64,000 nt of DNA from the NCBI RefSeq assembly GCF_057098645.1, contig NZ_CM169472.1. One strand, written 5' to 3'. The notes under the pieces are model-generated. The model did not search any database. It was not told the DNA's origin and saw only the letters and a program-made list of their open reading frames with translations. Shown here in pieces: positions 16,940-17,073 of this stretch (position 1 is the stretch's first letter; each line of letters begins with the position of its first letter). The position numbers and the translations under genes were made by a program.

Positions 16940-16961
16940 CGTTGTTCCTGTTCTATTGTCG

Positions 16962-17000
16962 CCTCGCCCCTCACCCCGGCCCTCTCCCAAAGGGGCGAGG
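16962..17000. other. Perfect 10-bp-stem hairpin (cctcgcccct / aggggcgagg) in the cpsG-wcaJ intergenic region
   Basis: Inverted repeat read directly, with a 19-nt loop; additional G/C-rich complementary blocks continue to about 17060. Confidence 0.6.
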
Positions 17001-17073
17001 GGGAGAAGAAAGTTCCGTGCTCACTTCTCTCCGCAGACAGTAGAGCGTCAGGGTGAGGGGGAAAGTAATGACA

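Follow-up and report, generated by a model that had tools for sequence, protein, structure and literature searches.

An inverted BoxC repeat pair at a conserved hairpin site between cpsG and wcaJ in the colanic acid operon

The gap between cpsG and wcaJ in the colanic acid operon is occupied by an inverted pair of BoxC repeats, in which the left copy is reversed and decayed and the right copy is an intact type B element on the sense strand of the operon. The pair stands at a cistron boundary where a stable hairpin has been kept across the Enterobacteriaceae. These observations come from a window of 64,000 nucleotides of contig NZ_CM169472.1 (RefSeq assembly GCF_057098645.1), which is the whole stretch of DNA that was analyzed; window positions below count from its first letter. 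We infer, with somewhat more confidence than doubt, that the site encodes an mRNA hairpin between the two cistrons, which probably impedes 3'-5' exonucleases, and that the BoxC pair has taken its place here.

The intergenic region (16940-17073, minus strand) is exactly 134 nt long and extends from the cpsG stop codon (UAA, 17074-17076, minus strand) to the ATG of wcaJ (16939-16937, minus strand). The initial annotation had described a 134-bp gap between co-oriented genes, and both genes do lie on the minus strand; their ends are supported by the RefSeq annotation of near-identical strains. The list of open reading frames (ORFs) extends wcaJ upstream to a TTG at 16990, within the BoxC core. Both the RefSeq annotation and a conserved Shine-Dalgarno sequence support the ATG at 16939 as the true start. 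The ribosome-binding region and start codon of wcaJ, ACAGGAACAACG AUG (16937-16951, minus strand), include AGGA at 16949-16946 and are near-invariant across genera in alignments A2 and A4. Aligned to the 54-nt gap of K-12, the region in the window is a long allele composed of the inverted BoxC pair and this ribosome-binding region.

BoxC repeats, which are the same as potential intrastrand triplex (PIT) elements and TMECO, are dispersed in E. coli; the TMECO consensus is 5'-CCCTCNCCC N3-6 GGGNGAGGG N3 GGGNGAGGG-3', with 23 copies at 18 sites in K-12 (Holder et al. 2015, PMC4666352). They are counted among the known stem-loop repeat families of E. coli, with 22 copies detected and 32 reported before (Petrillo et al. 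2008, PMC2267715). Positions 16968-17001 (minus strand) read CCCTCGCCC CTTT GGGAGAGGG CCG GGGTGAGGG, a pyrimidine block followed by two purine blocks. This type B core, with one mismatched triplet, matches the consensus exactly; no other match occurs in the 64 kb, and none arose when the window was shuffled 100 times. The initial annotation had overlooked this membership in a known family, though it had correctly separated the element from REP: the REP consensus (core GATGCGRCGY N4 RCGYCTTATC) matched at 18539, 29091, and 42264 and had no match in 16940-17073. A permissive Rfam scan of 16500-17500 returned only three chance-level matches to eukaryotic models, at 14 to 15.5 bits versus gathering values of 40 to 60.

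Together with its 5' flank, GCACGGAACTTTCTTCTCC, the core forms a 55-nt BoxC unit (16966-17020, minus strand; query positions 66-120) that has BLAST matches at other chromosomal loci. Searching 5,426 complete E. coli genomes gave 7,647 intergenic matches to this unit in 3,532 genomes, at 84-93% identity and with up to 6 matches per genome. The best match in K-12 lies upstream of yagE (L002, 1501-1556) and is TMECO no. 3 (PMC4666352, Table 1). Similarity to other loci is not confined to low-complexity G/C runs and spans the 55-nt unit, flank included. The feature is not a locus-specific regulator, and its kind is already known, with catalogues dating back to the 1990s and a cross-genome survey published in 2015. 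The earlier BoxC/PIT literature is said to comprise work by Bergler (1992), by Bachellier, and by Hoyne and Maher (2000/2002).

The left copy occupies 17024-17059 (minus strand) and reads CCCTCACCC TGA CGCTCTACT GTCTGC GGAGAGAAG. Its inverted and decayed state emerged from comparison with the intact pairs of Enterobacter, Kluyvera, Buttiauxella, and the K-12 lldD-trmL gap. If intact, it would read CCCTCACCC TAA CCCTCTCCC loop GGGAGAGGG; in the window its inner blocks have decayed and its spacer is TGA, where type A has TAA. The right copy has the type B spacer, CCG. The lldD-trmL gap of K-12 (TMECO nos. 17 and 18) has the same layout, namely, a reversed type A copy, a spacer, and a type B copy in the sense orientation. 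Like catalogued BoxC elements, the pair combines an exact consensus match (type B, one mismatched triplet) and a 55-nt unit shared with K-12 copies with a strictly intergenic position, between the cpsG stop and the wcaJ start, an inverted arrangement, a strain-variable locus, and a collapsed stem-loop allele. It differs from them in the decay of its left copy and in its context, which we did not find described: within an operon, in the sense orientation, and at a site where the family keeps a hairpin. As K-12 has the collapsed allele, the cpsG-wcaJ locus is missing from its 23 copies; it may still be in the ITxF database, among the 63 TMECO loci of Holder et al. Two supplementary files of Holder et al. 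contain no mention of wcaJ, cpsG, manB, or colanic acid, and literature searches on the cpsG-wcaJ intergenic region, on stem-loops of the colanic acid operon, and on Term-seq or RNase E data for cpsG returned nothing relevant.

Two pairings can form within the gap. The perfect 10-bp inverted repeat reported in the initial annotation is present as CCTCGCCCCT/AGGGGCGAGG (repeat I2, unstranded; 16962-16971 with 16991-17000, span 16962-17000); when the gap was dinucleotide-shuffled 500 times, a perfect repeat of at least 10 bp arose 6 times. It consists of the CCCTCGCCCC block paired with a fourth, overlapping purine block, GGGGCGAGG. The further complementary G/C blocks that had been described, CCCTCACCC/GGGTGAGGG (repeat I1), were also found and belong to an outer pairing of 16967-16985 with 17042-17060 that is 84% complementary. 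Since positions 16967-16971 are common to the 10-bp repeat and the outer pairing, the two are mutually exclusive alternatives.

Folding of the sense-strand RNA of the gap gave -56.3 kcal/mol (z = -3.13), with 1 of 200 shuffles as stable, which bears out the earlier proposal of a real, non-random, and very stable structure on the operon transcript; the antisense strand gave -55.4 kcal/mol (z = -2.32). Both the minimum-energy and the centroid folds of the sense strand contain a 12-bp outer helix, in which the 5' arm CCCCUCACCCUG (17049-17060, minus strand) pairs with the 3' arm CGGGGUGAGGGG (16967-16978, minus strand). This helix closes a three-way junction around two inner hairpins (17029-17024 with 17008-17003 and 17001-16993 with 16988-16980). 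The perfect 10-bp repeat is used in the antisense fold alone. The predicted sense structure begins 13 nt past the cpsG stop codon and ends about 27 nt ahead of the wcaJ start, leaving the Shine-Dalgarno sequence of wcaJ unpaired.

The very stable G/C hairpin that the transcript carries between the two cistrons could be a partial terminator or attenuator that lowers read-through into wcaJ, as had been suggested, and a G/C-rich stem-loop on the transcript is indeed what the element has in common with intrinsic terminators. We regard this as the least probable of the explanations that we considered, and one with hardly any likelihood. The predicted structure is branched and about 110 nt long, unlike the simple short hairpin of a terminator, and no version of the hairpin, in the window or in other species, is followed by a U-tract. 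A scan for terminators and promoters found no site at the element, where the downstream sequences are GGGGCGAGGCGACAAUAGAACAGG and CGACAAUAGAACAGG; we therefore dropped both the attenuator and the internal-promoter readings. Earlier assays cited by Holder et al. (PMC4666352) also found PIT elements to be without terminator or promoter activity.

The long form of the gap is a minority allele, a point that the initial annotation had also overlooked. The locus was matched with its flanks in 4,654 E. coli genomes, 508 of which (about 1 in 9) have a gap of 134-135 nt. All 52 of the sampled two-piece matches span 353-355 nt, which corresponds to a gap of 54-55 nt, and most of the other 4,146 genomes with the locus appear to have a gap of this length with a simple hairpin. 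The 54-nt gap of K-12 reads UAAUGU CGGAUCUU CCCUUACCCC ACUG CGGGUAAGGG GCUAAUAACAGGAACAACG AUG and contains a plain 10-bp hairpin, CCCUUACCCC-ACUG-CGGGUAAGGG, whose arms resemble the outer BoxC blocks. With the long form in only 508 of 4,654 genomes, this sequence cannot be a fixed part of colanic acid regulation; about 89% of the E. coli genomes with the locus do without the long element, so its specific sequence is dispensable. The conservation across strains on which the initial annotation had made its proposal depend thus divides in two: the sequence is not conserved, and some pairing at the position is.

The serotypes with the long allele are scattered (O145:H28, O55:H7, O2:K1:H7, O114:H49, O125ac:H10, and O126:H45), and the short form is found in O157:H7, K-12, and NC101. 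The long BoxC allele is present in O55:H7 RM12579 and in O145:H28, and strains of O157:H7 have the short form. The distribution of the allele seems to reflect recombination in the vicinity of the O-antigen region and not clonal inheritance. TMECO loci show unusual variation from one E. coli strain to another, and partial deletion often reduces an inverted pair to a stable stem-loop (PMC4666352); the short allele looks like the product of such a collapse. The short form, including its flanks, is common to E. whittamii, Salmonella arizonae, and Citrobacter and is therefore ancestral for that clade. We infer that the E. coli long allele is most likely derived and has spread between lineages by recombination near the O-antigen locus. 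Its source was also sought among other E. coli loci. None covers more than about 35% of the element, indicating that it was not copied whole from elsewhere in the chromosome, and an origin from another E. coli locus is unsupported.

The gap one step upstream in the operon, between cpsB and cpsG (18445-18636), carries a REP block in the same window. This gap measures 192 nt, versus 104 nt in K-12; the difference of 88 bp is due to a REP/BIME block that has CGTCGCATCAGGC on either side and a match to the REP consensus at 18539-18562. Present in 3,019 of the 5,426 E. coli genomes, the REP-containing long form is the majority state; set against the 508 genomes with the BoxC form, this count rules out linkage of the BoxC allele with the neighboring REP insertion. 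Another small hairpin, with the sequence UUGGCC-G(U/C)UUCGGUCAG-GGCCAA (18470-18500, minus strand), precedes the ribosome-binding site of cpsG in both the window and K-12 and may be another conserved intercistronic structure of the colanic acid operon. BoxC resembles REP/BIME in being a dispersed, G/C-rich, palindromic extragenic repeat between cotranscribed genes that can form a stable RNA hairpin; their sequences are unrelated, however, and BoxC is built of pyrimidine and purine blocks, with a third block in addition. We know of no binding of BoxC by IHF, gyrase, or a RAYT transposase. REP/BIME reportedly stabilizes mRNA between cistrons, as Newbury et al. are said to have described in 1987 for malE-malF.

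We examined the same gap in other Enterobacteriaceae in one scan of species-representative genomes with WcaJ, which gave 80 loci; the cpsG-wcaJ gap was delimited in about 75. Nearly every genus has a G/C-rich hairpin in the gap, whose 5' arm is rich in pyrimidines and whose 3' arm is rich in purines. The polarity is the same in 72 of 76 gaps, and 67 of 77 gaps, representing more than 20 genera, fold with z < -2. A strict TMECO match is found in this gap in 17 of 76 species. The hairpins range from two blocks through four and six to eight blocks to tandem arrays. Minimal two-block stems are represented by Leclercia (CCCCUCUCCC GAC GGGGGAGGGG), with similar ones in Lelliottia, Kosakonia, Silvania, Yokenella, and Citrobacter, and four-block hairpins that match TMECO on both strands are present in Enterobacter kpr-6 and E. 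hormaechei subsp. hoffmannii. Inverted pairs occur in E. cloacae, Kluyvera, Buttiauxella, Lelliottia, Superficieibacter, and Pluralibacter. Two loci show tandem BoxC-like amplification: L054 (1745-1958), with a 65-nt period repeated 3.3 times in a gap of 357 nt, and L028 (1824-1958), with a 41- to 43-nt period repeated 3.1 times in a gap of 247 nt. The ribosome-binding region is always outside the helix, at a median helix-to-ATG distance of 21 nt. In the literature searched, we found no prior description of a family-wide covarying hairpin at the cpsG-wcaJ boundary or of an orthologous site whose forms grade from a simple stem through a BoxC pair to tandem arrays. Taken together, the two observations provide a testable argument that BoxC has a role in RNA.

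One further locus in the scan, L078, comes from CACSKA010000001.1, labelled Chryseobacterium sp. 18061. It is a cpsG-wcaJ locus of the Enterobacteriaceae type, with a WcaJ that is 82% identical and a typical minimal hairpin; this assembly is probably contaminated or mislabelled.

The spacers between blocks were compared in the window and at 12 other loci (L018, L021, L023, L025, L026, L029, L030, L052, L066, L068, L069, and L083). They are noncomplementary in every four-block or paired form (TAA/CCG, CGG/TTA, CAG/GTA, CAG/GCA, and TAA/GCG), and those of the window, TGA/CCG at 17048-17050 and 16977-16979, are also noncomplementary. Because these 3-nt spacers do not pair, a 3x3 internal loop interrupts the long hairpin in every case, and a perfect long palindrome never occurs. 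It is a published rule that type A copies always have a type B partner, and the present pattern carries this rule over to other genera.

The four-block and paired forms give duplexes of at least 20 bp with the conserved 3x3 internal loop, and the 13-nt spacing suggests that a ribosome ending translation at the cpsG stop codon could reach the start of the structure. These features are consistent with an RNase III processing site, at which a long imperfect duplex is cleaved, or with an insulator that uncouples wcaJ translation from that of cpsG. We consider either role very improbable. The stems of the short forms, which are those of most species and of most E. coli strains, are just 9-11 bp long, and stems of this length are too short for RNase III. 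The Shine-Dalgarno sequence, for its part, is never sequestered.

Covariation was counted formally on A4, a flank-anchored alignment of 13 short forms from Escherichia, Salmonella, and Citrobacter. The count was restricted to A4 because the MAFFT alignments A2 and A3, with 30-32 short-form hairpins, were out of structural register across clades. In A4, 95.7% of cells were paired, versus 41-61% when the partners were slid. Three of the 11 pairs had changed on both sides (CG/UA, UA/CG, and GC/AU), and the loops varied at almost every position. The covariation score was 0.234, compared with 0.146 for shuffles, and none of 500 shuffles reached it.

For a wider set of distinct short-form sequences, we used a register search with Watson-Crick-only scoring, since a search that counts G·T as a pair biases the wobble count (26 versus 3). 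The internal non-Watson-Crick positions of these hairpins comprised 11 T·G, 1 C·A, and 6 other mismatches. A T·G position remains paired in the sense RNA; for C·A, pairing would be possible in the antisense RNA alone. Several of the T·G cases share ancestry, and the bias could come partly from strand-biased C-to-T mutation. The sense fold was the more stable in 54 loci and the less stable in 20; G·U pairs in whole-gap minimum-energy folds showed a weak excess on the sense strand (210 versus 166, or 32 loci versus 21). Even where RNA is not under selection, template-switch correction of quasi-palindromes can produce covariation in a DNA palindrome, and either this process or strand-biased C-to-T mutation could mimic part of the sense-strand signal. 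In the decayed four-block hairpins of Phytobacter, Kosakonia S29, and an Enterobacteriaceae metagenome-assembled genome (L022, L082, L035, and L081), pairing is largely kept by sense-strand U·G wobbles; the sense and antisense folds have -42.4 and -24.9 kcal/mol, respectively, in L082 and -37.2 and -26.5 kcal/mol in L022.

The repeat could instead be neutral or selfish, with no role in the operon. BoxC would then persist at or reseed the site and decay to palindromes, and the conservation would reflect palindrome dynamics and shared descent. We give this explanation a minor though appreciable chance. It accords with the restriction of the long form to 508 of 4,654 genomes and with the decay of copies in this gap (the left copy of the window, Phytobacter, and Kosakonia S29). 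The family, moreover, has been without a demonstrated function since the 1990s, with negative results in published tests for promoter, terminator, and polymerase effects (cited in PMC4666352), and TMECO loci are generally unstable, inverted pairs collapsing to stem-loops (PMC4666352). Neutrality does not lead one to expect that a hairpin of the same polarity would be kept in nearly all genera, even where the BoxC consensus is absent, or that stems would covary while loops vary freely. Nor is the 11-to-1 ratio of sense-strand U·G mismatches expected from correction of a DNA palindrome. Finally, 17 of 76 species have a strict TMECO in this single orthologous gap, whereas K-12 has its 23 copies at 18 sites across the whole chromosome.

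An explanation at the level of DNA is that the purine-rich sense (nontemplate) strand folds into an intrastrand triplex or a G-quadruplex, at which replication stalls or recombination is promoted, so that the gap becomes a hot spot of variation beside the O-antigen locus. TMECO oligonucleotides form triplexes in vitro, among them the sequence class of K-12 no. 3, which is closely similar to the core in the window and adopts an intrastrand triplex of the purine motif; TMECO loci also show more rearrangement than control sites do (PMC4666352). The purine half of the element, GGGAGAGGGCCGGGGTGAGGGG, fits the canonical G-quadruplex motif, and the locus is polymorphic, with a long allele scattered over serotypes and present in O55:H7 but not in O157:H7. 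We nevertheless consider this explanation improbable. In vivo DMS footprinting gave no support for a stable triplex (PMC4666352), and the flanking identities of long-form and short-form strains overlap. The two-block short forms of most species can form neither a triplex nor a G-quadruplex, so DNA structure of this kind cannot explain what the site conserves. As a conserved feature in its own right, the G-quadruplex was ruled out by the absence of its motif from the short forms.

We return to the intercistronic mRNA hairpin as the best reading. On the polycistronic colanic acid mRNA, the BoxC pair would form the three-way structure of about -56 kcal/mol described above. Following endonuclease cleavage downstream, this structure would stop PNPase or RNase II, and the sugar-nucleotide segment (through cpsB-cpsG) would outlive the wcaJ-wzxC-wcaKLM segment. 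It would thereby most likely share with the simpler hairpins of other genera the role of a protective 3' structure. The features peculiar to BoxC (its third purine block, its potential to form a triplex and a G-quadruplex, and the second copy) are probably not required by the operon and would be passengers, brought in by a repeat family that spreads or persists at hairpin sites. The initial annotation had offered an mRNA stability element as one possibility. That suggestion survives with indirect support, from the shared polarity of the hairpin in about 75 species and from its compensatory changes; the support is for a hairpin in general and not for this particular sequence. The colanic acid operon is silent under standard laboratory conditions.

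Protective 3' hairpins have been described inside operons and are conserved among E. coli, Salmonella, and Enterobacter (Dar and Sorek 2018, PMC5927463), which generalizes the mechanism known from malE-malF. The cpsG-wcaJ gap likewise has a stable structure at a cistron boundary that is conserved across related species: a hairpin at the 3' boundary of the upstream segment, shared by E. coli, Salmonella, and Enterobacter and lacking a U-tract. The structures in PMC5927463 were identified from 3'-end maps and from measured differences in decay, whereas the one described here is predicted from sequence, and most of them lie inside the downstream coding region, whereas this one lies between genes. 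Work cited by Holder et al. found PIT elements to be without effect on promoters, terminators, or RNA polymerase; RNA stability is not listed among the tested properties in their summary (PMC4666352).

For annotation, the region is better labelled as a BoxC/TMECO repeat pair and a strain-variable allele than as a terminator. The natural allelic series at this site, comprising the 10-bp hairpin, the four-block form, the inverted pair, and the tandem arrays, is suited to testing the effect of BoxC on mRNA. A broader proposal, which we put forward as possible but rather unlikely, is that the site is a family-wide RNA element that balances the sugar-nucleotide genes against WcaJ, which consumes Und-P, and that BoxC elements are interchangeable, self-propagating versions of its hairpin. 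If true, this would be the first physiological role for BoxC, as a modular mRNA stability cassette like REP, and it would explain the apparent collapse of BoxC to, and possibly its regrowth from, simple stem-loops at one site. The retention of a hairpin at the cpsG-wcaJ boundary suggests segmental control of the colanic acid mRNA, which could matter for capsule engineering and for the avoidance of toxic overexpression of WcaJ.
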